64,000 nt of DNA. Origin: an uncultured Bdellovibrionales bacterium (lineage in GTDB: Bacteria; Patescibacteriota; Minisyncoccia; Moranbacterales; UBA1568). Below are positions 11,755 to 58,617 of the stretch, in pieces (positions within the stretch are counted from its first letter, which is position 1; each line of letters starts with the position of its first letter). A model generated the notes under the pieces. That model had not been told where the DNA came from and ran no database searches. It saw nothing but the letters and a program-made list of their open reading frames with translations. The stretch covers positions 4,158 to 68,157 of the forward strand of contig CAYTED010000008.1 of assembly GCA_964436855.1 (NCBI GenBank), in the 5' to 3' direction. A program made the translations under genes and the position numbers.

Positions 11755-11941
11755 AATGATTTATGATTGATGATTTTTGATTTTAGAATAAACCTCATTT
11801 GATTCAGCCCGTGACAACCCATCAACATGAGGAATCACAATCATCCACTACAAATTCAAATCCCCTCCATATAAGTCCGATTCATAAATCATAAATCTAA
11901 AATCATACATCAATTACTCAGAAAATGCTCTCACTAAAATC

Positions 11942-13348: not shown

Positions 13349-13458
13349 GGTTAATTTCAAATTTTAAATTATAAATTTCAAAATAAATTACAATGTTTTA
13401 AATTTTTAAAATTCGATATTATTTTAGAATTTGAAATTTATATTTTGAAATTATATCT

Positions 13459-15263: not shown

Positions 15264-15382
15264 TTCTGAATCTCCCTGCCTGTCGGCAGACAGGGGCTCA
15301 AATCCGAATTCTTCAATTTTCGAAATTTTAAACATTCGTTTTTCAAAATTCATTCGAAATTCGTAATTCGGAATTCAAAATT

Positions 15383-16024: not shown

Positions 16025-16064
16025 CCCTGGAATCTGGAATAAGGAATCAAGAATCTGGAAAAAC

Positions 16065-16097
16065 AAAAAACCTCACTTTTCCGAAAGAGGTTTTTTG
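16065..16097 (+). terminator. Probable intrinsic terminator/attenuator between fdx and sufT
   Basis: AACCTC...GAGGTT stem followed by TTTTTTG. Confidence 0.45.
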
Positions 16098-16150
16098 TTT
16101 ACAATAAAAATCTAGATTCCAAATTCTAAATTCAAGATTCTTGACATAAT

Positions 16151-16510: not shown

Positions 16511-17371
16511 TTATGCAAATGTTTTTAACAGTTCAGTAAATGTTTCTTCTTCGAATGTATCTTGGTGGAGCGGTCTATCATTCGATCGAACAACGGTTTC
16601 GTACGGCTCTTTATCAGGATTTTTATAGATCACGCCAAGGGGCATTTTATCCGTTTCAAAAGCTTTTTCCATCGCCGCCATTCGATCGGTCGGGTCATAG
16701 GTTTCATCGAGCAGATAGGTATGTTCGGTAAACCATTGATACGTATTTACTTTATTGAAGACAACGCATGGCTGAAAAACATCGAGCAGCACGTATCCTT
16801 TATCCCAGAGAAGCGCCTGTTTGAAAATCTCTTTTGCCTGCTGAATATTTCCTGCATTTGCCCGAGCGACAAATGATGCGTCGAGCGATACCGCGACCGC
16901 AATTGGATTAAACGGGTCCAGAAGAACACCATTGACCTGTACCGGCGTCTGCAAGCCTTTTTCGGATGTCGGTGATGCTTGGCCTTTCGTCAGACCATAA
17001 ATCATATTGTTGTGCACGATATTTACAATACCGGAATTTCGACGAATGGTATGGACGAAATGGTTACCTCCTTCGCCATAAACACAACCGTCTCCGGATT
17101 CCGCAATCACTTTTAACTTTGGATTGGCAAGTTTGATTGCCGTTGCCGCCGGAAGTGACCTCCCATGCAAACCGTTAAACACATTCATACGAACATAGTG
17201 CGGCGTTTTGGCCGCTTGCCCGATACCCGATGTCATAACTATTTCTTCCGGCGAATACCCAAGTTCGGAAAGCGCCATCTTGAGAATAGAGAGAATGGGA
17301 AAATTTCCACACCCCGGACACCATGCAATATCAGTGTCATGCGGCATGTTAAATTTTTGTTGATCGGCCAT
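16511..17371 (-). CDS. korB: 2-oxoacid:ferredoxin oxidoreductase beta subunit (TPP-binding)
   Basis: [41 protein letters not shown] (TPP-binding motif). Confidence 0.85.
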
Positions 17372-17378
17372 ACGTCAT

Positions 17379-17401
17379 GATTTAAGATTTTTGATTTATG
17401 A
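17379..17401. repeat. Left arm of 23-bp inverted repeat bracketing the four-helix-bundle gene
   Basis: GATTTAAGATTTTTGATTTATGA, 22/23 identical to the reverse complement of 17785-17807; overlaps the stop codon of the enclosed ORF. Confidence 0.7.
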
Positions 17402-17788
17402 TTTTAGAATGTCCTTCGATTTTTTGATCAGACCACTCAAAAGCTTATGTGCGGTATTCGCCTGTTCTGCAATCTCATGAAACACTTCTTTTTGTAGATA
17501 TTCTATGTCTTTCGCAAGCAACAACTGATTCTTTAATTCCGTAAGCGATCCCTGTGCTATATAATAAAAATGAACTTTTTCTTTATATGTCTGCCGACCA
17601 AAACCTTCAGCAATATTGGAAGTTATTGAAATAGCAGCACGCCTCATTTGATCAACCAAAGAATATACCGCTTCCTTTGGAAACTTCTTCGTTATTTTAT
17701 ATATCATGATAACAAGCTTGTGTGACTCACTCCAAGCATTGAGATCAGTAAATGAGCGTATCTTTACGATTTCAGATTTCCCATTCAT
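17396..17788 (-). CDS. Four-helix-bundle protein (TIGR02436; 23S rRNA intervening-sequence protein / Avd family)
   Basis: Signature KFPKEAVYSLVDQMRRAAISITSNIAEGFGRQTYKEKVHFYYIAQGSLTELKNQLLLA. Inserted between korB and korA. Confidence 0.8.
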   Translation of the reverse strand: MNGKSEIVKIRSFTDLNAWSESHKLVIMIYKITKKFPKEAVYSLVDQMRRAAISITSNIAEGFGRQTYKEKVHFYYIAQGSLTELKNQLLLAKDIEYLQKEVFHEIAEQANTAHKLLSGLIKKSKDILKS

Positions 17789-17807
17789 AAATCAAAAATC
17801 CTAAATC
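17785..17807. repeat. Right arm of 23-bp inverted repeat bracketing the four-helix-bundle gene
   Basis: TCATAAATCAAAAATCCTAAATC, the reverse complement of the left arm with one mismatch; overlaps the ATG of the ORF. Confidence 0.7.
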
Positions 17808-17816
17808 TTCAATCAA

Positions 17817-19508
17817 TCATAGCTCCGCTATGATTTCTTCCGCTGAAAACGGTTCCCCGATATATTTCAAAATTCTCTGATCAGTCTTTACTTTTAATTC
17901 CTTCTCCAAGAGATCAGCAAACTGTCCCGTTGCATTGTTCTCAACCGTTACCACTCGTCTCCCGCGCTTGAAGTATTTTTTTGCATCGGGAGCAATTGGA
18001 TATACTTGAGAAAAATGGAGTACTGAACAGTCTTCCCCAAGAAGCTCTTTTGCTTCGAGCAGCACTCCTTTGGTCGAACCAAATGATACGAGAAGTGTTT
18101 TGCAGGATTTTTCATTTCCAAAAAAACTCGGCGGGAGCGCATCTTCCTTCAGTCCTGAGAGTTTCCCGAGTCGCTTGTCCGTCATTTTTTTGCGAAGATC
18201 GAAACTCTCGGTAATATGACCCTCCTCATCATGCTCGTCACTGTCAACCGAAACAATTCCTTCGCCGTACCCGGGAATACCCCGAGGAGAAACACCATTT
18301 TTGTCGGTATGGAGGTCATAACGTTTGTAGTCTTTTTTTGTCTTCACGGTATATGAGTGAATCGGGAGCTGCTTGAGGTCCTTGGGGTCGACAATCGCTA
18401 CCGAGTCGAGCAGGTACTGATCGGTCAGAATGAATACCGGAGACTGATATTTGTCTGCCATTTCAAATGCCTGCTGGGCACACACAAACATCTCCTCCTG
18501 ATCCCCCGGTGTAAAGATTGCCCGAGGAAATTCACCGTGTCCCGCATAGAGCACAAGATTCAAGTCTCCCTGTTCCATTCGTGTCGGAAGTCCCGTCGCC
18601 GGACCCGGACGCATACCGATATGGATCACCGCTGGAGTCTCGAGCATTCCGGAGAGACTCACCCCTTCGCACATGAGCGCAAACCCGCCGCCGGATGTTG
18701 TGACGATCGCGCGCGCGCCGGCATACCATGCTGCGACACACATATTGATCGCCGCGATTTCGTCTTCCGCCTGATCGACGACCATCCCAAACGGACCGCC
18801 ATTTTGTGCGAGAAAGGTGAGTAGTCCCGTCCCCGGAGACATCGGATACGAGGCGATAAAATTACATCCCGCCGCAAGCACACCGAGTCCGAGCGCCTGA
18901 TCGCCGGAGAGCAGGAGCTTTTCGTGCATATCGGTCGCCTTTGGAAGAGAAAGGTGGATACTCTCAGCGTAGGCGAGGTGTCCGCCGAGCGTGTATCCTT
19001 TTTCGGCAGCTTCGATGTTTTTCTCGACGACTTCTTCTCCCTTCCGAAGAAAACGATTTTTCAAAAATGTATGGAATTCCTCTTTTGGTGCCTTGAGAAA
19101 CCCAAGAATCACTCCGACCGCCACCGTTCCGGCGTATAGCGGACTTCCGATTTCATTGGCGATACTACTTATAGGAACATCGATAACATGATGCTTTGAC
19201 TGCACCACCTTGGTATCACCTAAAATAAGGGTCTTTGCACCAATGCGATCCTCCAAGTGAGGAATAACGTCCTTGTCGAGCGCAAATAAAATATCGATCC
19301 GACGCGTGTAAGAACGAGTCCCTCGAGAAGAAAGGCGGATCTCCGTTGAGTTTGAGCCGCCGCGAATCCGCGACATATATTCTTTCGACGCAAACACGCG
19401 ATATCCGTCTTTTTTCAAAACCGAAAGGAGCATTGCCTCCACCGTTTGAATTCCCTGCCCCGCCGCTCCGCCGATCACGATGGAAATATCTTTTGCAAAA
19501 TGCTTCAT
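17817..19508 (-). CDS. korA: 2-oxoacid:ferredoxin oxidoreductase alpha subunit with fused N-terminal gamma-like domain
   Basis: N-terminal IVIGGAAGQGIQTVEAML (gamma-type) followed by the alpha core (GDQALGLGVLAAGCNF, YPMSPGTGLL, AGARAIVTTSGGGFALM). Confidence 0.85.
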   Translation of the reverse strand: MKHFAKDISIVIGGAAGQGIQTVEAMLLSVLKKDGYRVFASKEYMSRIRGGSNSTEIRLSSRGTRSYTRRIDILFALDKDVIPHLEDRIGAKTLILGDTKVVQSKHHVIDVPISSIANEIGSPLYAGTVAVGVILGFLKAPKEEFHTFLKNRFLRKGEEVVEKNIEAAEKGYTLGGHLAYAESIHLSLPKATDMHEKLLLSGDQALGLGVLAAGCNFIASYPMSPGTGLLTFLAQNGGPFGMVVDQAEDEIAAINMCVAAWYAGARAIVTTSGGGFALMCEGVSLSGMLETPAVIHIGMRPGPATGLPTRMEQGDLNLVLYAGHGEFPRAIFTPGDQEEMFVCAQQAFEMADKYQSPVFILTDQYLLDSVAIVDPKDLKQLPIHSYTVKTKKDYKRYDLHTDKNGVSPRGIPGYGEGIVSVDSDEHDEEGHITESFDLRKKMTDKRLGKLSGLKEDALPPSFFGNEKSCKTLLVSFGSTKGVLLEAKELLGEDCSVLHFSQVYPIAPDAKKYFKRGRRVVTVENNATGQFADLLEKELKVKTDQRILKYIGEPFSAEEIIAEL

Positions 19509-19836: not shown

Positions 19837-20835
19837 TTATCCATTTTTCGATTTATAGCCTGACAATTCCTGTTTCAGGGTATATGCATTTCCGTGAGAA
19901 AGCAACCCGATATATGAGGCAAATACCTTTTCATCGACATTCTTCCGAATATTCTGAAACATCTTCTTTTTGGTGATCGTGCGAAGTGTTCGACAATGAG
20001 GAAAGTGCACCCAACCGAGAAAATCCACTCCTGATGCCCATGTCTTTATGAAAATCTTCTTGTCATGGAGCGAAAGCTTCAGTTTTTCCGATAAAAAATG
20101 ATCCAGGTCAACAACAATATCCCGCAAATACTCTCCCTTCTCCGAAAAAATCACGAAATCATCGGCATATCGAATGTAGTGTCGGATTTTCAATTTCCGC
20201 TTCACAAACTGATCAAATTCATTCAGATAAATATTAGAGAAAAGCTGACTTGTCAGGTTCCCGAGAGGAAGTCCAACGCCCTTCATTCCTCTCGTTTCGA
20301 AGCTTCGAATGATCTTTTCCAAAAGAATGAGGATATCCTGATCTTCAATATGTCGCTTGAGAATTTCCAGTAATACGCTGTGCTCTATCGATGCGAAAAA
20401 TTTCCTAATATCACATTTCAATACAAAACATTGCCGAGTATTGTTTTTTGACACTCTTCGCGCGAATACCCGAAAACGATTGATTGCCCTCAGTGCTCCT
20501 TTTTCCTCCCTACAGGAATACGAATCAAATATGAATCGATCATCGAAATATGTTTTCAGAGACCGGTAGATGATATGATGGACGATCCTGTCACGAACTG
20601 CAGCTTTGTGAATATCGCGAGGTTTCGGATCTGAAACCCTGAAAGCCCAATATGATCCATGAGTATATTTCCGACTTTTCAAATCAACCTGCAATACGAA
20701 GAGATTTTCCATAAGACGCATTTCGAACTCCGCAACATCACTCTGTTTACGCTTCCCAGCAACAAATTTCTGCCACGCCGAAAACACGACTTCCAGCGAT
20801 GTGATATCATCATATTTGAGATCCAATTTTTTCAT
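19837..20835 (-). CDS. Diversity-generating retroelement (DGR) reverse transcriptase
   Basis: RT motifs PRDIHKAAVRDRIVHH (1), KCDIRKFFASIEH (2), the DGR-specific LPLGNLTSQLFSNIYLNEFD (motif 4 with SQ in place of QG), YIRYADDFVIFS (YxDD), GVDFLGW. About 330 aa, the size typical of DGR RTs. Confidence 0.9.
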   Translation of the reverse strand: MKKLDLKYDDITSLEVVFSAWQKFVAGKRKQSDVAEFEMRLMENLFVLQVDLKSRKYTHGSYWAFRVSDPKPRDIHKAAVRDRIVHHIIYRSLKTYFDDRFIFDSYSCREEKGALRAINRFRVFARRVSKNNTRQCFVLKCDIRKFFASIEHSVLLEILKRHIEDQDILILLEKIIRSFETRGMKGVGLPLGNLTSQLFSNIYLNEFDQFVKRKLKIRHYIRYADDFVIFSEKGEYLRDIVVDLDHFLSEKLKLSLHDKKIFIKTWASGVDFLGWVHFPHCRTLRTITKKKMFQNIRKNVDEKVFASYIGLLSHGNAYTLKQELSGYKSKNG

Positions 20836-20887
20836 TTTTTATTCCTATGAATACCCCCCCCCTCGGCTTTCCAGTATCAGCGTCAAG

Positions 20888-21244
20888 ATGCTCGCTTTCT
20901 ATACCGAGTGGCATGACATCCTGACGAGACATATCCCGAAGATCGAGCGCTATTCGATCGGCATGCGCATCGACAATCTTTTTTCAGGCATTCTCGAAGA
21001 CATCGCTCTCGCGCAATTTTCCCTTCCTGAATACAAAATCCCTTATATCAAGCGCGCTATCGGAAAGAATGATACGCTCAAATTCATGCTCTATGCGCTT
21101 TTCAATTTGAAAGGCATTGACGAGAAAAAATTCATTTCCCTTTCCGAAAAAACGGAGGAGATCGGTCGCATGCTCTATGGATGGAAATGCAAAATGGAAC
21201 AAAAACCGCCAGAGCGACAGTATTCCGGCGGAAAAAATTTGTGA
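20888..21244 (+). CDS. avd: Avd-like accessory variability determinant (four-helix-bundle family), divergent from the RT
   Basis: IPKIERYSIGMRIDNLFSGILEDIALAQ and C-terminal EKTEEIGRMLYGWKCKMEQK parallel the TIGR02436/Avd family. Compare PKEERYgLtsQlrRaavSI...EKIEEvkkMLiGli, and Bordetella Avd ...AEVGRILGSWIAR. The stop lies 3 nt before the TR. Confidence 0.5.
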   Translation: MLAFYTEWHDILTRHIPKIERYSIGMRIDNLFSGILEDIALAQFSLPEYKIPYIKRAIGKNDTLKFMLYALFNLKGIDEKKFISLSEKTEEIGRMLYGWKCKMEQKPPERQYSGGKNL

Positions 21245-21247
21245 GTA

Positions 21248-21371
21248 TCGAGGAGCACAGCACGCTCGTTCGAGTCCCAGTCGTTGTCCAGCCAATTCGC
21301 ATTCCGGTTGAACTTCGAGCCATTCCAGTTCGAGCGAGGCACATTCCAGTGGCCGTCCTTGTCACGCAACA
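21248..21371 (-). repeat. DGR template repeat (TR)
   Basis: 124-nt direct repeat of 21699-21822 with no indels. 15 mismatches, every one at a T on the plus strand (an A on the minus strand) in this copy. Conceptual peptide GHWNVPRSNWNGSKFNRNANWLDNDWDSNERAVLL is rich in AAY (Asn) codons. Confidence 0.9.
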
Positions 21372-21642
21372 TCGCGGGAAATACCATCCTCTCTATCCAC
21401 TGTCCAGCTCAATCGCGCACAGACTGTATTTCATTCCGTATCTTCAAATACGCGAGCATTTCCCACAGACTCACTTTTCTTTTTTTTCGAAAACGTTTTT
21501 CACTTTCCGTAGGAGATTCCGTTGGAAATTCCGAAAACGCCGTCTCGACACAAGAGGATGCTCCGGCGTACCCGAGCACCCATTCTCTTCTGCCTCTCTA
21601 TACTATCATGCGATCCTCAAAAAATTCAAAGGGCAAAGGGCA

Positions 21643-21659
21643 ATTCGCCTTTGGCGAAT
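21643..21659 (-). other. GC-rich hairpin about 38 nt downstream of VR (candidate DGR homing stem-loop)
   Basis: ATTCGCC-TTT-GGCGAAT, a 7-bp stem with a 3-nt loop, lying between VR/IMH and TR. Confidence 0.4.
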
Positions 21660-21691
21660 CAAAGAGCAGATTCAAAATTCAAAAGCAAAGG

Positions 21692-23935
21692 TCATTTCTC
21701 GAGGAGCACAGCACGCTCGTGCGAGCCCCAGTCGCTGTCCAGCCAATGCGCATGCCGGCCGAACCCCGAGCCATCCCAGTACGAGCGAGGCACATACCAG
21801 TGGCCGCCCTCGCCACGCAACACAGAACCAGGGCAGAAGAACCAATTCCCATCCTTGAGTTCCTGTGGTGTTCGATCAGGATTTTCAATCATCCATTTCC
21901 AATATTCGATACCGGGAATATGATGTGTGGCTCCGTAAGTACCAATGATATGCTTCATCACCTCGTACCGCTTCTTTCCGACAAATGCCGAGAGGTCCGG
22001 GATAAATACTTTCGCTCGCTCAAAATCAAGTCCTTGCGTTTCGGGATTGAGAGTGTATTCTCCGATTTTGTTTGCATCGATATCCTGTGAGAGCTGTTCA
22101 TAATCAAGCGCACTCGGGTTTTGAAATGCTGCTTCCTGTTTCGCATTGTTCACGATTTTTTTGCTCCACCACATCTTGAATGTCTCAAAGAGAAAGGGTT
22201 TATTTCCTTCCTTCAGTATCTCGATATCCAGATCCGCTGCTACATCCACTCCTTCCTTATCCACTTCACCACCCAAAAGATCTGCTACTGCACCTTTCAA
22301 ATCAGGAGAGAATTCTTTCATTTCTGCCAATTCTTTCAGTGTTATTATTCTTTCTTTTTTCGATCGTTCGATCGTAGCTTTGATAGCCACATCATCCCTC
22401 CCTTGCTTGAGCGCACTCACATCGAATATATTCTGTGGTAAACCAAGCTCTGCCGGCGTCACCGTTCGGAGAAATCCTTTCAGAGCGAAAATTTTTGCCG
22501 CCAATACGCGATCGCTTTCCGGATATTCCTTGAAGGTGATTCCAGTCTTGATCGCCTGATCAAGAAATTCTACGAATGAATTCCCCGGATTCAATCGCCG
22601 CTCCGTTCCCCATCGCTCCAAGATCGCCTCAACTGTTCCCTGTGTGCCCACAAACTTCTTCAGTCCCGGCTTCTTACCTGAAGCATCCTTCACGCCAATG
22701 AGCTGCGCTGTCGCATTGCGCACCGATGGTTCATAGTATGCAGCCTGAATTTCTTCCATAGCCTCGCAGAATTTCGGCAGCGTCGTTTCGAGATCATAGT
22801 CCGATAGCATGATACTTCCATCGCGATCCATCAATCTTGCCTTCATGATATCAAATGCCTCATCCTTCGGCGTGTAGAGGATTTCGAGATTATTCTGCTC
22901 GAATTCTCGGGCGATTTCCGGCGGGAGATCCTGCCGTTCTGGATTTTTTTCAGACTTCAGATTGGCTGTAAAAATCATCTGGAATCCCGGTTCGATACGA
23001 ACGTCTCCATTTCCTGGGATGTTGATTATATCACCTACCTTCGCATTTGCCACGCCTTTCATAAACACCATAATATCCTTCGGGAGCGCCGTGAATTCAT
23101 CGAATATTACCGTTTTTCCCTCTTTGATCGCTCGCGCCAAAGGACCGTAGATATCCACGGTCTCTATCGCGCCATGCTCGCCCCTGGCACGAATCCTGGT
23201 CTTTCCCCAAATATGTGATTCCCGCGTCTGCGGCGTACAATACACCATCTCAGCGCGCTTGCCAGTAAAGTGTTCAGCAGCATATCGTGCAAGCGAAGTT
23301 TTTCCGGTTCCCGTCGGTCCATGGAGAAACATCGGTTTGCCATGAATTATGCGCTTTCCGATCTCGCTCAGGTACTTCTCTACGGATGGTGTATGAACGA
23401 TATGCCCTTCTTGGAAGAGGTCGCCACGGAAATCCATCAATTCAAACATCCTCCATTCCGTCGGATGATCCTTTTTTACCTCTTTCAGTCGAGCGAGAAG
23501 TTCTGGCTTTGCTTGTCTAATCTTCTCAAGCGACCGATCAAGAGCCATGATCGGCCTTGCAGCCTGCTCACGCAGGCAATATATCTCGAAATTCGTCACA
23601 CCGCGAAAGTCTTTTTCCAAGGAAGCAAACGCCTCATATACTGATCCGATCTGTTTTCTGATCGATTCCTTGTCTATGCGCGCTGAAAGCTTGTCACCTT
23701 CCGATTCCAGTCTCTGTCTCTGCAAAAATTCCTTCGCCTTGGAAAAAGCCAACTTCTCACCTTCGCCTTTTGGAATATGAAATTCTTTCGCCTGCTCATT
23801 GAGATCTGCTTTTGATTCTTGGAGATCGGACCGCAATACATCTGGAACACCCTGATTTCTCGCTTCGCGCAATGCATGACGGACCGTTTTCCGCTCTTCG
23901 GAAATCCGGTGAAAATTTTGTATTGGTTTTTCCAT
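21692..23935 (-). CDS. DGR target protein: cytoplasmic MoxR/CbbQ-like AAA+ (AAA_5) ATPase with C-terminal C-type-lectin/FGE-fold variable domain
   Basis: No signal peptide. Walker A FLHGPTGTGKTSLARYAA, Walker B VIFDEF. C-terminal GNWFFCPGSVLRGEGGHWYVPRSYWDGSGF... is encoded by the VR. Confidence 0.85.
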   Translation of the reverse strand: MEKPIQNFHRISEERKTVRHALREARNQGVPDVLRSDLQESKADLNEQAKEFHIPKGEGEKLAFSKAKEFLQRQRLESEGDKLSARIDKESIRKQIGSVYEAFASLEKDFRGVTNFEIYCLREQAARPIMALDRSLEKIRQAKPELLARLKEVKKDHPTEWRMFELMDFRGDLFQEGHIVHTPSVEKYLSEIGKRIIHGKPMFLHGPTGTGKTSLARYAAEHFTGKRAEMVYCTPQTRESHIWGKTRIRARGEHGAIETVDIYGPLARAIKEGKTVIFDEFTALPKDIMVFMKGVANAKVGDIINIPGNGDVRIEPGFQMIFTANLKSEKNPERQDLPPEIAREFEQNNLEILYTPKDEAFDIMKARLMDRDGSIMLSDYDLETTLPKFCEAMEEIQAAYYEPSVRNATAQLIGVKDASGKKPGLKKFVGTQGTVEAILERWGTERRLNPGNSFVEFLDQAIKTGITFKEYPESDRVLAAKIFALKGFLRTVTPAELGLPQNIFDVSALKQGRDDVAIKATIERSKKERIITLKELAEMKEFSPDLKGAVADLLGGEVDKEGVDVAADLDIEILKEGNKPFLFETFKMWWSKKIVNNAKQEAAFQNPSALDYEQLSQDIDANKIGEYTLNPETQGLDFERAKVFIPDLSAFVGKKRYEVMKHIIGTYGATHHIPGIEYWKWMIENPDRTPQELKDGNWFFCPGSVLRGEGGHWYVPRSYWDGSGFGRHAHWLDSDWGSHERAVLLEK
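21699..21822 (-). repeat. DGR variable repeat (VR) at the 3' end of the target gene
   Basis: Counterpart of the TR. Encodes GHWYVPRSYWDGSGFGRHAHWLDSDWGSHERAVLL, so every difference from the TR peptide falls at a TR-adenine codon (N to Y/D/G/H/S, K to G, D to G). The last 20 nt (GC-rich, 21699-21720) are identical to the TR (IMH-like). Confidence 0.9.
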
Positions 23936-23946
23936 AATGTTTGTTT

Positions 23947-24567
23947 TTATTCCTCACTCACACTTATTTTCTTGAGCACGGACTGAATTGTTTCAATATC
24001 CGCTTCGAACCCCGGACGAAATATCACGGATTCCGTATAATCGATATCCTCAAAATATGCGAGTGCCGATCGGAATATCTTTTCATTAAATTCACCTCCG
24101 AATATCTGCTTCGACTTTTCTATTACCTGCTTCAAAGAATACTGTTTTGAAAGAATAAAAAAGAGGTCGACATAATCCTTCCATTTCGATCTCCTTCCAA
24201 GCGCATATGCCTTCATAGCCGAGAGCGTCAACACATCCGCAATATGTATCGTGCCATCAAGAGCGATATCCGCTTTGAAAGGGAATGGGTATGACAAAAA
24301 AGTCATCTTCACTCCTTTTACGACCACCGTATATTCACTATTATTTTTTACCAGCACTATGAAGTTCCGGTCTACTTCGGAAATCTTTTTCCGAAGATCA
24401 GCAACATCCAGCTCCCCATTGGTAAACAGATCAAAATCGATCGATTCGCGATGACCAAGCTGCAATGCGATAGCCGTTCCGCCACACAACGTAAAATCCT
24501 TCTCCATCTTTCTTAGAAGTGGCAACAGTGCTTGCTGCGAAGGGGAGAGTATTTCTTTATGCAGCAT
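23947..24567 (-). CDS. AbiEii/AbiGii-family nucleotidyltransferase toxin (DUF1814)
   Basis: FTLCGGTAIALQLGHRESIDFDLF matches the AbiEii N-terminal NTase motif (GGTAL...R.S.D.D). 206 aa. Confidence 0.7.
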   Translation of the reverse strand: MLHKEILSPSQQALLPLLRKMEKDFTLCGGTAIALQLGHRESIDFDLFTNGELDVADLRKKISEVDRNFIVLVKNNSEYTVVVKGVKMTFLSYPFPFKADIALDGTIHIADVLTLSAMKAYALGRRSKWKDYVDLFFILSKQYSLKQVIEKSKQIFGGEFNEKIFRSALAYFEDIDYTESVIFRPGFEADIETIQSVLKKISVSEE

Positions 24568-24888: not shown

Positions 24889-26808
24889 CTATACATCAGC
24901 AAGATGTTCTTGCAATACATCTGCAAGAATGTTTGGGAGTTTTTCTGCTGTTTCCGCAAGCTTGGCCTCTGGAGCATAGGTTGTCAGGGCTGGCTTGCCA
25001 TCTCTCGTAATGCCGATACCGATAACGATCACCCTTTGCTTTCTCAAGGTTTTCAATACTCTCTCAACGCGCGATGGATCATCACTCTCTCCATCCGTAA
25101 AGATAATGACGATCTTTTTCAGTTCTCCTTCCGTTATTAAATATTCCCTATCCTGATCAATGCTGCGTGCGATGGTTTCAAGCGGCACAAAATCAGTCGT
25201 TGATCCGGAACACGTTCCGATTTTCGCTGCTGTTTCGATTCGTTCTTTTTCCGAAAGATCATTCGAGAGACTCTTCAAAGGAATACTATCTTCCGAAGAT
25301 GACTGAAAGGAAAATATTTCCGAACATATCTCCAGCGGCTTTTCCAGGTCATATGATGATTCCTTGGCAAGATCGGAAAATTCCTTGAGTGCTTCCATAA
25401 ACAAAATAACCGCCTTCTGCTGCTCGAGTTTCTTTTTCCCTTCCATAGATGTCGAGCGGTCGCATACGAGCGTGATTTCCACTCTCCCGAAGCGTTTTCC
25501 TTTTTGGATTCGGATATCATGCGTCTCCCATGCTTTCGGCTCGAAATCTCCCGCTTTCGCCCGCACTACAAGCTCGACCGGGTCCACCAAGTCCTCACCC
25601 TCCTCCACTGGATAGCGGGGCGCCGGAACTTCTTTTCTTCGCCTTGAAATAATCCGGGAAATCAGTTCCCGCAAGTCTTCAATAACACTCCGATTCGTCT
25701 CCGGATTGATGATTTTTCTCATTGCATCTGCGATAGATCGATACCGCTTCAGATCTTCTTTTTTCACTCCGAGTTTTTCTGCATATTCCTTGTCCGCCCG
25801 GTCGAGCGGATCACCCTGCGCTTCCTGCCACTTCTTGAATGCCTCCTGCTCTTTCTCTACTGGAACAGCATTTGGAACGCGCTTGTCGGCACGGTCATAT
25901 GCCTCTTTGAATGTCTCGTTCGGATTCTTTTTTTCTTTGCTGTTTTTCTCTTTTCCGAATTTTTCTTGCTTCTGTCCTGAAGGAGAAGACTGCGACGACT
26001 CGCCTTGCTCTCCTTCTTTTTTATCATCACTTGATTTTCCATCTTTTCCTTTCTCGTCTTGCCTTTCTTCTTCCTCCTCATCCTTCTTGAGCAATGCTTC
26101 CACCTTCGGCCAGACGTATCTGTCCTGTAATTTCAAACGAACAGACATCGGAGTGCCAGGATCCGCCATAATCTGAAAGAGTGATCTACCATCCTTTGCG
26201 CGTATATTTTTCAATTCATCGATCGCTTCGCGCACTTCTGGAGCAACCACACATGTCTCATCCAGCACTCTTGCCTCACGAAGAATCGCTTGTGGAAGCT
26301 GCAAATGCTTCGGCTCTCCTGAGAGATCAACATTCGGAAAAAGATCCGTGCGATACATATCTTTTTCAATCGCCGCGTATCCTTCGTCTGTTCTTCGTAT
26401 CACCGTTGTATTTTCTCGGATATCCGCGATGCAGTTATCCATCACAGAATATGCTTTCGATGCTGTGATACGTGAAAGATAATTCTGGTACACCTTCTCG
26501 CCACCCTCTTCGGCAAGAAGTTGTTTTTTCTCAAGGAAATGCTCAATCTCATGCAAGGATGCATAGGTCGTTTTCTCATCGGACAATCCTTTTTCCTTGT
26601 AGAATCGCGCATTAAGATAGATATCGTCTGTCTCAAGATCGAACGCGAAAGTATTCAGATTCGCCGGAGCTGGCTTCACATTCACCCTTCCTCTCGCATA
26701 GTGTTCGAACACATCGCGATTCGCTTCGAAATGACGTAAGGCTTCTTCGTGTTCCGATTGATGAACCTCTTTCGGATTGTTCGGTATAGTGAAAATTTTC
26801 TCTCCCAT
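24889..26808 (-). CDS. vWA-domain protein with N-terminal HExxH metallopeptidase-like region (DUF2201-type MoxR partner)
   Basis: HEIEH motif near the N-terminus, acidic/Lys-rich low-complexity middle, C-terminal vWA with MIDAS DRSTSM...IIFTDGESDD...VIVIGIG. Confidence 0.65.
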   Translation of the reverse strand: MGEKIFTIPNNPKEVHQSEHEEALRHFEANRDVFEHYARGRVNVKPAPANLNTFAFDLETDDIYLNARFYKEKGLSDEKTTYASLHEIEHFLEKKQLLAEEGGEKVYQNYLSRITASKAYSVMDNCIADIRENTTVIRRTDEGYAAIEKDMYRTDLFPNVDLSGEPKHLQLPQAILREARVLDETCVVAPEVREAIDELKNIRAKDGRSLFQIMADPGTPMSVRLKLQDRYVWPKVEALLKKDEEEEERQDEKGKDGKSSDDKKEGEQGESSQSSPSGQKQEKFGKEKNSKEKKNPNETFKEAYDRADKRVPNAVPVEKEQEAFKKWQEAQGDPLDRADKEYAEKLGVKKEDLKRYRSIADAMRKIINPETNRSVIEDLRELISRIISRRRKEVPAPRYPVEEGEDLVDPVELVVRAKAGDFEPKAWETHDIRIQKGKRFGRVEITLVCDRSTSMEGKKKLEQQKAVILFMEALKEFSDLAKESSYDLEKPLEICSEIFSFQSSSEDSIPLKSLSNDLSEKERIETAAKIGTCSGSTTDFVPLETIARSIDQDREYLITEGELKKIVIIFTDGESDDPSRVERVLKTLRKQRVIVIGIGITRDGKPALTTYAPEAKLAETAEKLPNILADVLQEHLADV

Positions 26809-40381: not shown

Positions 40382-40597
40382 TTACTGGACGGTATACGGC
40401 ACAAGCGCCATAAAACGAGCGCGTTTGACAGCGGTCGTGAGGGCGCGCTGTTGCTTCGCGTTCAGACCGTATCGCTTCGGCGGATAAATCTTTCCCTGCG
40501 AGTTCAAGAAGCGCCTCAAAAAGTAGGCGTCCTTGTAATCAATCGTTTCTAATTTCTGTGCGAGTTCTTTGTCCATAATATCTCGGTTAAAAATCAA
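40382..40597 (-). CDS. rpsR: Ribosomal protein S18
   Basis: IDYKDAYFLRRFLNSQGKIYPPKRYGLNAKQQRALTTAVKRARFMALVPY. Confidence 0.85.
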   Translation of the reverse strand: MIFNRDIMDKELAQKLETIDYKDAYFLRRFLNSQGKIYPPKRYGLNAKQQRALTTAVKRARFMALVPYTVQ

Positions 40598-40697
40598 AAA
40601 TCAAAATGAAAAATGTTGGTTTTGGCTCCGCCAGAGAATCCGATTCTTCCGCCAAAGACAAACGATAATTTTTCATTTTGATATTTACATTTTCCAT

Positions 40698-57496: not shown

Positions 57497-57775
57497 TTAA
57501 TGGGGTACGCTTCTGATCGCAAATCCGTAGGTCTTTGCTACCGTTTCCGCGATCCTGCCTGAAGTATACGTCTCCGGAATACGAACGTCAACGGAGAAGT
57601 TATCCACTTCATCCGCTTCAATTCCTCTTTCTTGCAACAGATCGTTTATAGCCTGAAAAAGCCGCGCACCCATATCGCGTGATTCTTCCCACTCGCAAAC
57701 CAACCTCTCTGTATTATCTTCGAGAAGTGAGAGTTTGGATTTGTCTTTTTCAACTGTCAGTATGAATGCGTACAT
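57497..57775 (-). CDS. Hypothetical small protein
   Basis: ORF only. Confidence 0.25.
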   Translation of the reverse strand: MYAFILTVEKDKSKLSLLEDNTERLVCEWEESRDMGARLFQAINDLLQERGIEADEVDNFSVDVRIPETYTSGRIAETVAKTYGFAIRSVPH

Positions 57776-57861
57776 GAGCGCTTGCTGATTTAAGATTTAA
57801 GATTTTTGATTTATGAATTCAAGACTTTATGGATTTCCATTCTTAAATCCTCCATCATAAA

Positions 57862-58617
57862 TCATGAATCAATTTTTCTCCAATCAAAATTCCACGGATC
57901 ATCTTTCCGTCCCGGGGCGATATCGCTGTGCCCCACAACATTTTTAATCGGATATTTCCCCTTTAAATACGCAAGAATATTGTTTATCGACGTATACTGC
58001 GCGTCCGTCATTTTACTTTCTTTCGTATTGAGAATTTCGATACCGATTGAAAAATTATTCACATCAGTGCGACCGTCCGGCATTTTCGATACGCCGGCAT
58101 GATACGCGATATTCGCGTCATCCACCAATCGATACACATTCCCCTTTCTATCGATCATATAGTGCGGCACAACGCCATAGCTTTCCCAAATCTTCATCAC
58201 CGCCGAAACGGAATACGGGTCCTTCCCCTCCGGATCGTAAGACGAGTGAAGAACAACAGTGTCAATCGTTCGTTTCGACGAGGGAATTTCAAATCCGAAA
58301 TTCACTTTTTTGTCGATGATATGTACTGCTTGTTCTCCGTTTTGTTCCTTTGATACAGTCTCCGCGGGGGGAGATTCTTCGCTCATCGTTTCCGTCGCCC
58401 GATTTTCCACCATACTTTTCACGTCGAGCGCTTTTTCCCTCACCGCTTCATAACGAGAAACTCCGCTACTCCCCGAAAGAATATCGGAGATTGATTGTTC
58501 GGTCGTCGGCGTTGTATCATTTTTCACCGTTACCGAGGCGGATTCCGATCCAAAGAGAAAATACCCCGCCCCGAGGATCATTAAAAGTATCGCAATAAGA
58601 AGTCCGAGGAAACCCAT
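57862..58617 (-). CDS. Membrane-anchored N-acetylmuramoyl-L-alanine amidase (Amidase_2/PGRP fold)
   Basis: VVLHSS...NIAYHAGVS...NNFSIGIEI...VVGHSDIAPGRKDDP: Zn-binding His/His/Asp pattern of AmpD/PGRP amidases. Confidence 0.7.
   Translation of the reverse strand: MGFLGLLIAILLMILGAGYFLFGSESASVTVKNDTTPTTEQSISDILSGSSGVSRYEAVREKALDVKSMVENRATETMSEESPPAETVSKEQNGEQAVHIIDKKVNFGFEIPSSKRTIDTVVLHSSYDPEGKDPYSVSAVMKIWESYGVVPHYMIDRKGNVYRLVDDANIAYHAGVSKMPDGRTDVNNFSIGIEILNTKESKMTDAQYTSINNILAYLKGKYPIKNVVGHSDIAPGRKDDPWNFDWRKIDS

Follow-up and report, generated by a model that had tools for sequence, protein, structure and literature searches.

In a 64,000-nt stretch of contig CAYTED010000008.1 (assembly GCA_964436855.1; hereafter the window), the korA-like and korB-like genes for the two subunits of a 2-oxoacid oxidoreductase are separated by a small four-helix-bundle (4HB) gene enclosed in an inverted repeat. 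We regard it as probable that this 438-bp segment (17378-17815) is a palindromic cassette of the intervening-sequence (IVS) type, a PF05635 gene between inverted arrays of heptamers that was inserted long ago in the alpha-beta spacer, within an mRNA operon. The IVS-like element put forward in the original prediction was thus essentially the right idea. The architecture of rRNA IVSs and the PF05635 family are known; new here is an IVS-type element in mRNA operons with a heptamer signature that runs through the family. While the nature of rRNA IVSs and the role of their conserved open reading frame (ORF) have been open since the early 1990s, the same module is now found in protein-coding operons, in thousands of copies and with intact genes under purifying selection.

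The 4HB gene (17396-17788, minus strand) encodes a protein of 130 amino acids in the 23S_rRNA_IVP family. It scores 131.6 bits against PF05635 (cut-off 33.8; 1.6e-38) and 124.8 bits against TIGR02436, the “four helix bundle protein” profile (cut-off 24; 1.6e-36), and its closest solved structure is a pentameric Xanthomonas protein (PDB 2gsc, 5.7e-19). With both scores far above the cut-offs, the reading of this gene as an IVS-family four-helix-bundle gene between korB and korA is upheld. It is the only ORF in the cassette and is not a known transposase, and a search with defence-system models gave no matches. The upstream host gene (17817-19508, minus strand) encodes a 2-oxoacid:acceptor oxidoreductase alpha subunit of the fused gamma-alpha kind (TIGR03710), and the downstream host gene (16511-17371, minus strand) a 2-oxoacid:ferredoxin oxidoreductase beta subunit (TIGR02177).

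The near-perfect 23-bp inverted repeat reported around this ORF is present, with its one mismatch: GATTTAAGATTTTTGATTTATGA at 17379-17401 is the reverse complement of 17785-17807 (23 nt, 96%), and the sole mismatch in this core reads as G·U on the coding strand, which is the minus strand. Beyond the core the repeat continues to arms of 34 nt (minus strand; 3' arm 17378-17411, 5' arm 17782-17815; 82% match), which together with the ORF occupy 438 of the 445 nt between korA and korB. The 5' arm starts 1 nt past the korA-like stop and the 3' arm ends 6 nt before the korB-like ATG. As had been noted, the repeat overlaps both ends of the ORF, the ATG (17786-17788) lying in the 5' arm and the TAA (17396-17398) in the 3' arm, and the ends of the protein (N-terminal MN, C-terminal ...ILKS*) are encoded inside the arms. 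Both arms read as tandem 7-nt units of the form GATTTAW, the 5' arm as about four heptamers (TGAAGAT, TTAGGAT, TTTTGAT and TTATGAA) and the 3' arm as an inverted array.

As in an IVS, the terminal sequences are complementary and form a long enclosing stem. The arm duplex has a computed energy of -33.9 kcal/mol, compared with -15.2 +/- 3.6 for shuffled arms and -28.6 for the best of 300 shuffles, and in a sense transcript of 601 nt the 23 core pairs are predicted to form with a mean probability of 0.99. The terminal stem, whose folding the original prediction proposed to check, is present in both the minimum-free-energy and the centroid structures of a 471-nt region. Inverted repeats of comparable quality number 9 in the window against 0.7 expected from Markov-1 simulations, and the 23-mer arm has 6 matches in the window at no more than three mismatches against 0.00 expected from shuffles; the further copies that the original prediction proposed to look for thus exist, and the kor repeat, made of a heptamer found again at other window junctions, is not unique to its site. 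These shuffle and duplex controls exclude a generic AT-rich motif with no pairing potential. At the arms we found no intrinsic terminator (GC-rich stem and T-run); promoter-like matches to sigma-70 hexamers at the cassette are as many as in shuffles, and an Rfam search of the cassette matched no family.

The kor cassette is an insertion. In a survey of 80 loci with a gene for a beta-subunit relative, the gap from the korA stop to the korB start is only -28 to +20 nt at about 60, and in these short junctions the Shine-Dalgarno sequence of the beta gene often lies within the end of the alpha gene. Junctions holding a PF05635 gene are limited to one clade of the beta-subunit tree and are interleaved there with empty ones. 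Among the filled junctions of that clade, L001-L007, L099 and L102 hold a gene of the window type and L098 and L112 one of another type (“type B”), which matches PF05635 at 50 bits, has no pairwise similarity to the window protein and lies between different arms. Because these two loci hold a different PF05635 gene with different arms, cassettes must have come to occupy the korA-korB junction on at least two or three occasions. The type-B gene of L098 (530-1050) contains an in-frame stop (…RIEPL*KETLELV…) and appears to be decaying, while its counterpart in L112 is intact.

The kor cassettes of L001-L007 are orthologues of the window copy, with the shared order xseB-alpha-4HB-beta. Among these orthologues dN/dS is 0.047-0.076 at a dS of 0.9-1.6, and the dN of the 4HB gene (0.075) is about half that of korB at the same loci (0.16-0.175). 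The non-coding bases of the arms differ at 9-13% of 46 positions, as against 61-67% at synonymous sites, and the sequence just beyond the 3' arm is unrelated between orthologous loci. The low dN/dS and the conservation of the arms beyond that of synonymous sites show that the protein and the arms of the kor copy are both kept by strong purifying selection. Clean compensatory changes were sought among three orthologous stems and none was found; the variation falls at the free positions of the heptamer. Since the copy is orthologous in species separated by a dS of 0.9-1.6, it is not recently mobile but long static and vertically inherited, and because a static copy keeps so low a dN/dS, we argue that its protein serves the host now or is needed to tolerate the hairpin, and not just for mobility.

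The kor copy is one of many. The 4HB protein has >3,392 close homologues, nearly all in the candidate phyla radiation (CPR)/Patescibacteria, and matches 21,743 representatives of 50%-identity clusters at E <= 1e-3. Genomic context was read in 80 further genome loci over many CPR classes, together with the earlier loci and the window. Neighbours lie on the same strand in 42 of 45 cases upstream (median gap 33 nt) and 40 of 47 downstream (22 nt), and the median distance of the outer stem base is 2.5 nt from the upstream stop and 7.5 nt from the downstream start that follows. CPR cassettes therefore occupy operon junctions in the sense orientation, and their stem base adjoins the upstream stop and the downstream start. 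No rRNA was found in the window or within 6 kb on either side in the 96 homologous loci (0/97; blastn with the E. coli rrn operon), nor a transposase within +/-6 kb of about 97 loci. A location in protein-coding operons is the rule for this PF05635 clade in CPR and not an oddity of the kor copy. The proposed IVS organisation accordingly stands as regards the PF05635 gene in the loop of a long stem with tandem heptamers as in Coxiella, and does not extend to a place in rRNA.

The arrays themselves are a property of the family. For 48 distinct genes (96 flanks), compared with 189 control ORFs (378 flanks), an ungapped inverted-repeat score of at least 12 between the flanks was reached by 47 of the 48 genes and by 8 of the 189 controls. 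Periodicity, where detectable, was always 7 and never any other value, in 67/96 flanks as against 21/378 control flanks. (Duplex energies from RNAduplex on 90-100-nt flanks were tried as a discriminator and replaced by the ungapped score, as 40% of control ORFs reach -30 kcal/mol or lower.) The heptamer varies by lineage (GATTTAN, GAATTAT, GTATTNT, GAATTTA and others), is the same in both arms of a cassette, and follows the clades of the protein tree. Mismatches in the stems are locked to the phase of the repeat, at 3-4% for heptamer positions 1-2 versus 33% and 40% for positions 5 and 7 (p = 4e-29), which indicates that the stems are helices with regularly spaced unpaired bases.

Hairpins that carry the genome's own heptamer and no ORF are common, with 69 inverted array pairs in 822 kb of loci. 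The kor cassette thus belongs to a large and apparently undescribed CPR population of junction hairpin cassettes, with and without a gene. In the literature searched we found no description of such cassettes in protein-coding operons and no link of heptanucleotide repeats to the PF05635 family. At one locus (L026, 5789-6579) two heptamer types are piled around a single 4HB gene, with a complete ORF-less hairpin upstream and three arrays downstream, an arrangement that suggests nested or repeated insertion at one spot.

The window itself holds at least five ORF-less heptamer-array hairpins at operon junctions besides the kor cassette. One of GATTTAW type (11756-11916) fills the sufC/sufB junction, beginning 1 nt past the sufC stop. 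Another (57787-57875) lies between the ORFs 57862-58617 and 57497-57775, both on the minus strand: its arm at 57794-57816 is identical to the kor arm 17379-17401 at 23 of 23 positions, its other arm holds the stop of the upstream ORF, and it ends 11 nt ahead of the ATG of the downstream one. We considered that these two might be deletion derivatives with ORF remnants and rejected this, as the alignments stop at the arms and both orientations score alike. With the kor cassette they make three dispersed GATTTAW-type elements with terminal inverted repeats in the window, as is typical of miniature inverted-repeat transposable elements (MITEs).

Other hairpins of the window have other heptamers. 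An AATTTCA/TGAAATT hairpin (13352-13453), whose arms resemble the type-B arms of L098 and L112, fills the junction after sufB, and a GGAATCT/AGATTCC hairpin (16028-16145) lies between a ferredoxin gene and an FeS-assembly-P gene. An inverted repeat with AAAAATC-type period-7 arms (40589-40693) is probably a further member. In the related loci L003 and L005, hairpins occupy the same suf junctions with other heptamers (AAAACAC, GTTAACG), and one is also present at nifU|fdx, where the window has a spacer of 3 nt. As both the presence and the heptamer type of the hairpins differ between the window and these relatives, junction hairpins turn over.

Recent duplication of the cassette family is shown in at least one genome. 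The protein P0101 is encoded twice on one contig, 12 kb apart (L191/L192), at unrelated loci, once between pilC and a pilin gene and once between a large protein and a TPR protein. Between the two copies the DNA matches at 100% over a segment that runs from the inner 5' heptamers across the ORF and breaks off sharply at its 3' end (...CTTAAATCGTTTG). Their flanks are unrelated, and their 5' arrays differ in length, with about 4 and about 12 units. In contigs of other samples (L194, L196), the flank upstream of one copy is combined with that downstream of the other, either by recombination across the repeated cassette or as an assembly artefact caused by it. The suggestion of a miniature mobile element in the original prediction is thus supported for the family by empty korA-korB junctions, a different PF05635 gene in L098/L112, ORF-less derivatives and two identical copies in one genome, and it fails for recent movement of the kor copy.

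How a host operon might live with such an insertion can be proposed from its layout. The cassette, which has no recognisable promoter or terminator of its own, is presumably co-transcribed with the kor genes. The arms would pair in this transcript as a stem of about 23-34 bp, looping out the ORF and bringing the korA stop beside the korB start. Ribosomes finishing korA would open the 5' arm and could start the 4HB gene 28 nt on, and those finishing the 4HB gene would terminate within the 3' arm, at a distance of 24 nt from the korB start. Since the stem and this ribosome relay would keep korA and korB coupled, expression of the host genes would survive the insertion. The AU-rich stem is a plausible substrate of RNase III, which the host presumably has, and cleavage would free the 4HB mRNA and cut the operon transcript in two; from the parallel with rRNA IVSs we give such cleavage of the kor stem about an even chance. 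The pentameric, Avd-like protein may bind the heptamer stem with its unpaired bases every 7 nt.

Several observations weigh against this account. The fold of the whole 471-nt region is unexceptional (z = -1.5) and the terminal stem alone stands out, although the whole-region value is uninformative because the interior of the ORF dominates the fold. Stem mismatches are of the G·U type in the sense strand in 29 cases and of the antisense type in 41, and duplex energies are equal on both strands; these counts and energies give no support to a sense-strand RNA signature in the arms, and pairing with no sense-strand preference is equally compatible with a role at the DNA level. The correlation of heptamer and protein clade is equally expected from simple co-inheritance, and the binding of protein to repeat is drawn from the analogy with Avd. 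An RNase III gene (rnc motif) is not present in the 64-kb window. No transposase was identified for the family, and there is no consistent target-site duplication: the TGA...TGA that flanks the window copy is not conserved in L001/L005, and none is seen at L191/L192. Some relatives outside CPR, moreover, lack a stem; in L201 the arrays are direct (AAAAGCT x14 ... AAAAGCC x10), and L200 and L208 have only a 3' array.

A competing explanation treats the arms as terminal inverted repeats that act as DNA in a MITE-like element, moved by an enzyme encoded elsewhere, with the 4HB gene as cargo or accessory and the RNA hairpin as incidental. We hold this to be unlikely. It would account well for ORF-less multicopy derivatives that share arms within a genome, for the identity of the copies at two loci up to a sharp 3' boundary, for the existence of empty sites, for wobble pairs that show no sense-strand bias, and for the turnover of junction hairpins between related species. 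A DNA transposon, however, does not require co-orientation with the upstream gene (42/45) or exact abutment on stop and start codons, although selection in compact genomes could filter for both, and neither a transposase within +/-6 kb in about 97 loci nor a clear target-site duplication is seen. The arms, too, are arrays of short units in variable copy number and not a defined terminal sequence, and at kor a static copy keeps arms and protein under selection.

That last feature is what would be expected of a domesticated host module, with a housekeeping function for the 4HB protein, a hairpin serving as an mRNA stabiliser or punctuation like REP elements or the RNase III sites of T7, and no ongoing selfishness. 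Vertical inheritance at kor over a dS of 0.9-1.6, a dN/dS of 0.05-0.08 with the protein more conserved than korB, the conserved arms, and heptamer hairpins at many suf operon junctions all speak for it, yet close relatives have an empty junction and others one with an unrelated PF05635 gene, the family has duplicated recently, and junction hairpins vary in presence and heptamer between related species. We find domestication as a full explanation quite unlikely, and it does not contradict a selfish origin, with which it is compatible. Chance is excluded as the source of the inverted repeat in low-complexity, AT-rich sequence flanking a small gene: the arms are indeed AT-rich and repetitive and the whole-region z-score is only -1.5, but the 23-mer matches have no counterpart in shuffles, shuffled arms fall more than 5 sd short of the real duplex, arm sequence is kept among orthologues whose synonymous sites are saturated, and the same arrangement is found around nearly all homologues and few controls (47/48 versus 8/189).

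The IVS-type reading draws on the resemblance to the insertions in 23S rRNA of Coxiella burnetii, Leptospira and Brucella, where the same protein family is encoded in the loop of a terminal inverted-repeat stem. The C. burnetii IVS has a 28-bp terminal stem, which RNase III cuts, and ahead of the ATG of its S23p gene lie tandem GACAGAT heptamers, three or four depending on the strain; in the kor cassette, tandem heptamers likewise form the 5' arm directly before the ATG. In both cases the element lies in sense orientation within the host transcript, and short versions with no ORF exist. The kor cassette differs in lying in the spacer between protein genes and not in an rRNA helix, in having an ORF under purifying selection while that of Coxiella is decaying and apparently untranslated, and in that its excision by RNase III is proposed by analogy. 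IVSs proper lie in a helix of a 23S or 16S rRNA gene, and RNase III removes them from the precursor with no re-ligation of the ends. The rRNA IVS is regarded as a selfish, possibly once-mobile element, and a survey of rRNA insertions in CPR lists some that hold 23S_rRNA_IVP ORFs.

Other known elements share single features with the cassettes. Correia elements of Neisseria, enterobacterial repetitive intergenic consensus (ERIC) sequences and repetitive extragenic palindromes (REP/BIME) are short multicopy inverted-repeat elements of intergenic spacers that are co-transcribed with their neighbours. The Correia hairpin is cut by RNase III, which affects mRNA stability; Correia elements have TA duplications and REP elements have RAYT transposases. 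The ORF-less hairpins of the window behave like these on paper, but the arms of the known elements are not heptamer arrays and no member is known to carry a PF05635 gene. RNase III sites of T7 early mRNA are stem-loops placed, like the kor stem, exactly between cistrons, and cleavage there yields separate mRNAs stabilised by 3' hairpins. They differ in being short, irregular stems that enclose no gene and are not repeated elements.

Outside CPR, homologues on plasmids (tblastn, 30-50% identity) are found mainly in cyanobacteria and Riemerella. Heptamer arrays were present on at least one flank in 10-11 of the 12 plasmid regions that we read, and in 7 of the 12 they were inverted on both sides (e.g., GGGTGTA/TACACCC, GACAGGT/ACCTGTC, GGGAGTA/TACTCCC). 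Since some homologues have direct or one-sided arrays, the stem is not universal, while the period-7 array is nearly so. The cyanobacterial plasmid genes are flanked by GGGTGTA, GACAGGT, GGGAGTA, GGGAAAA and AAAAGCT arrays and so sit within repeats like the cyanobacterial short tandemly repeated repetitive (STRR) sequences, which were reportedly described by Mazel et al. in 1990 as tandem arrays of 7-nt repeats in intergenic regions. To our knowledge STRR sequences have no known function and have never been linked to a protein. The heptamers of CPR differ from them in being AT-rich and mostly in inverted pairs.

Two of these plasmid regions, from Pseudanabaena and Anabaena (L201, 1504-1863; L203, 801-1169), have the PF05635 gene and long heptamer arrays between cas6 and cas4. 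A published clustering survey lists an association of “23S rRNA IVP” with CRISPR, which may reflect cassettes in this position. On a plasmid of Nostoc edaphicum (L204, 801-1169) the gene, with its GGGAGTA/TACTCCC arrays, separates the two ribonucleotide reductase genes (beta and alpha) in antisense orientation, at another junction of a two-subunit enzyme.

The period-7 arrays connect the heptamers of the Coxiella IVS, the cyanobacterial heptanucleotide repeats and the CPR junction hairpins, which had been described separately. We propose, as a speculation that we hold to be quite unlikely, that the PF05635 protein and the heptanucleotide arrays are two halves of one system, in which a pentamer recognises stems or strands built of the 7-nt repeat cognate to it, and the two together spread as a class of element that maintains itself with no transposase and colonises transcribed spacers such as rRNA helices, operon junctions and cas operons. 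If true, this would explain rRNA IVSs, STRR repeats and CPR junction hairpins together. ORF-less hairpins and empty sites provide natural controls that make binding, cleavage, coupling and mobility testable. For annotation, many “four helix bundle protein” genes of CPR are parts of repeat cassettes, and the operon junctions of these tiny genomes are more than simple spacers.

The proposal that the gene is a paralogue of Avd, the accessory protein of diversity-generating retroelements (DGRs), is not supported as regards a close paralogue; the two are only distantly related. The 4HB protein shares 22% identity with the Avd of the window (E 0.36) and falls below the Avd cut-offs, with 30.6 bits for NF033474 (cut-off 80) and 28.3 bits for PF22296 (cut-off 40). 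The protein has the same four-helix-bundle superfamily fold as bAvd (PF22296/NF033474), and these matches to the hidden Markov models are weak. Avd is a positively charged pentameric barrel, and in cryo-electron microscopy all five protomers contact an RNA stem-loop through flipped-out bases. The kor cassette differs in that it is not adjacent to a reverse transcriptase (RT) gene, template repeat (TR) or variable repeat (VR), and the avd gene of the window has no heptamer flanks.

A link of the cassette to the neighbouring DGR was considered and rejected: no RT was found within +/-6 kb of the 96 other cassette loci, the proteins are only 22% identical, and orthologous loci have no DGR, the cassette being present and the RT absent in L001 and L005. 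The DGR itself is complete (19837-23935), with RT at 19837-20835 (minus strand), Avd at 20801-21244 (plus strand), TR at 21248-21371 and VR at 21699-21822. The VR forms the C-terminal end of a gene for a 747-aa AAA_5 protein (21692-23935, minus strand), and 15 of 15 TR/VR differences fall at TR adenines in the minus-strand reading. L001 and L005 have the order xseA-xseB-korA with no DGR at this place.

Two junctions of the window show hairpins of other kinds. In the loop of the GGAATCT-type element at the ferredoxin/FeS-assembly junction lies a small hairpin resembling an intrinsic terminator (16061-16100; AAACAAAAAACCTC ... GAGGTTTTTTGTTT). The csd|nifU spacer (15264-15382) contains a GC-rich hairpin (CCCTGCCTGTCGGCAGACAGGGG) followed by GAATTC-rich period-7 sequence, possibly another degenerate heptamer element. 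Adjoining the DGR target gene are a gene with an AbiEii-type nucleotidyltransferase toxin domain (23947-24567) and a VWA-domain gene (24889-26808).

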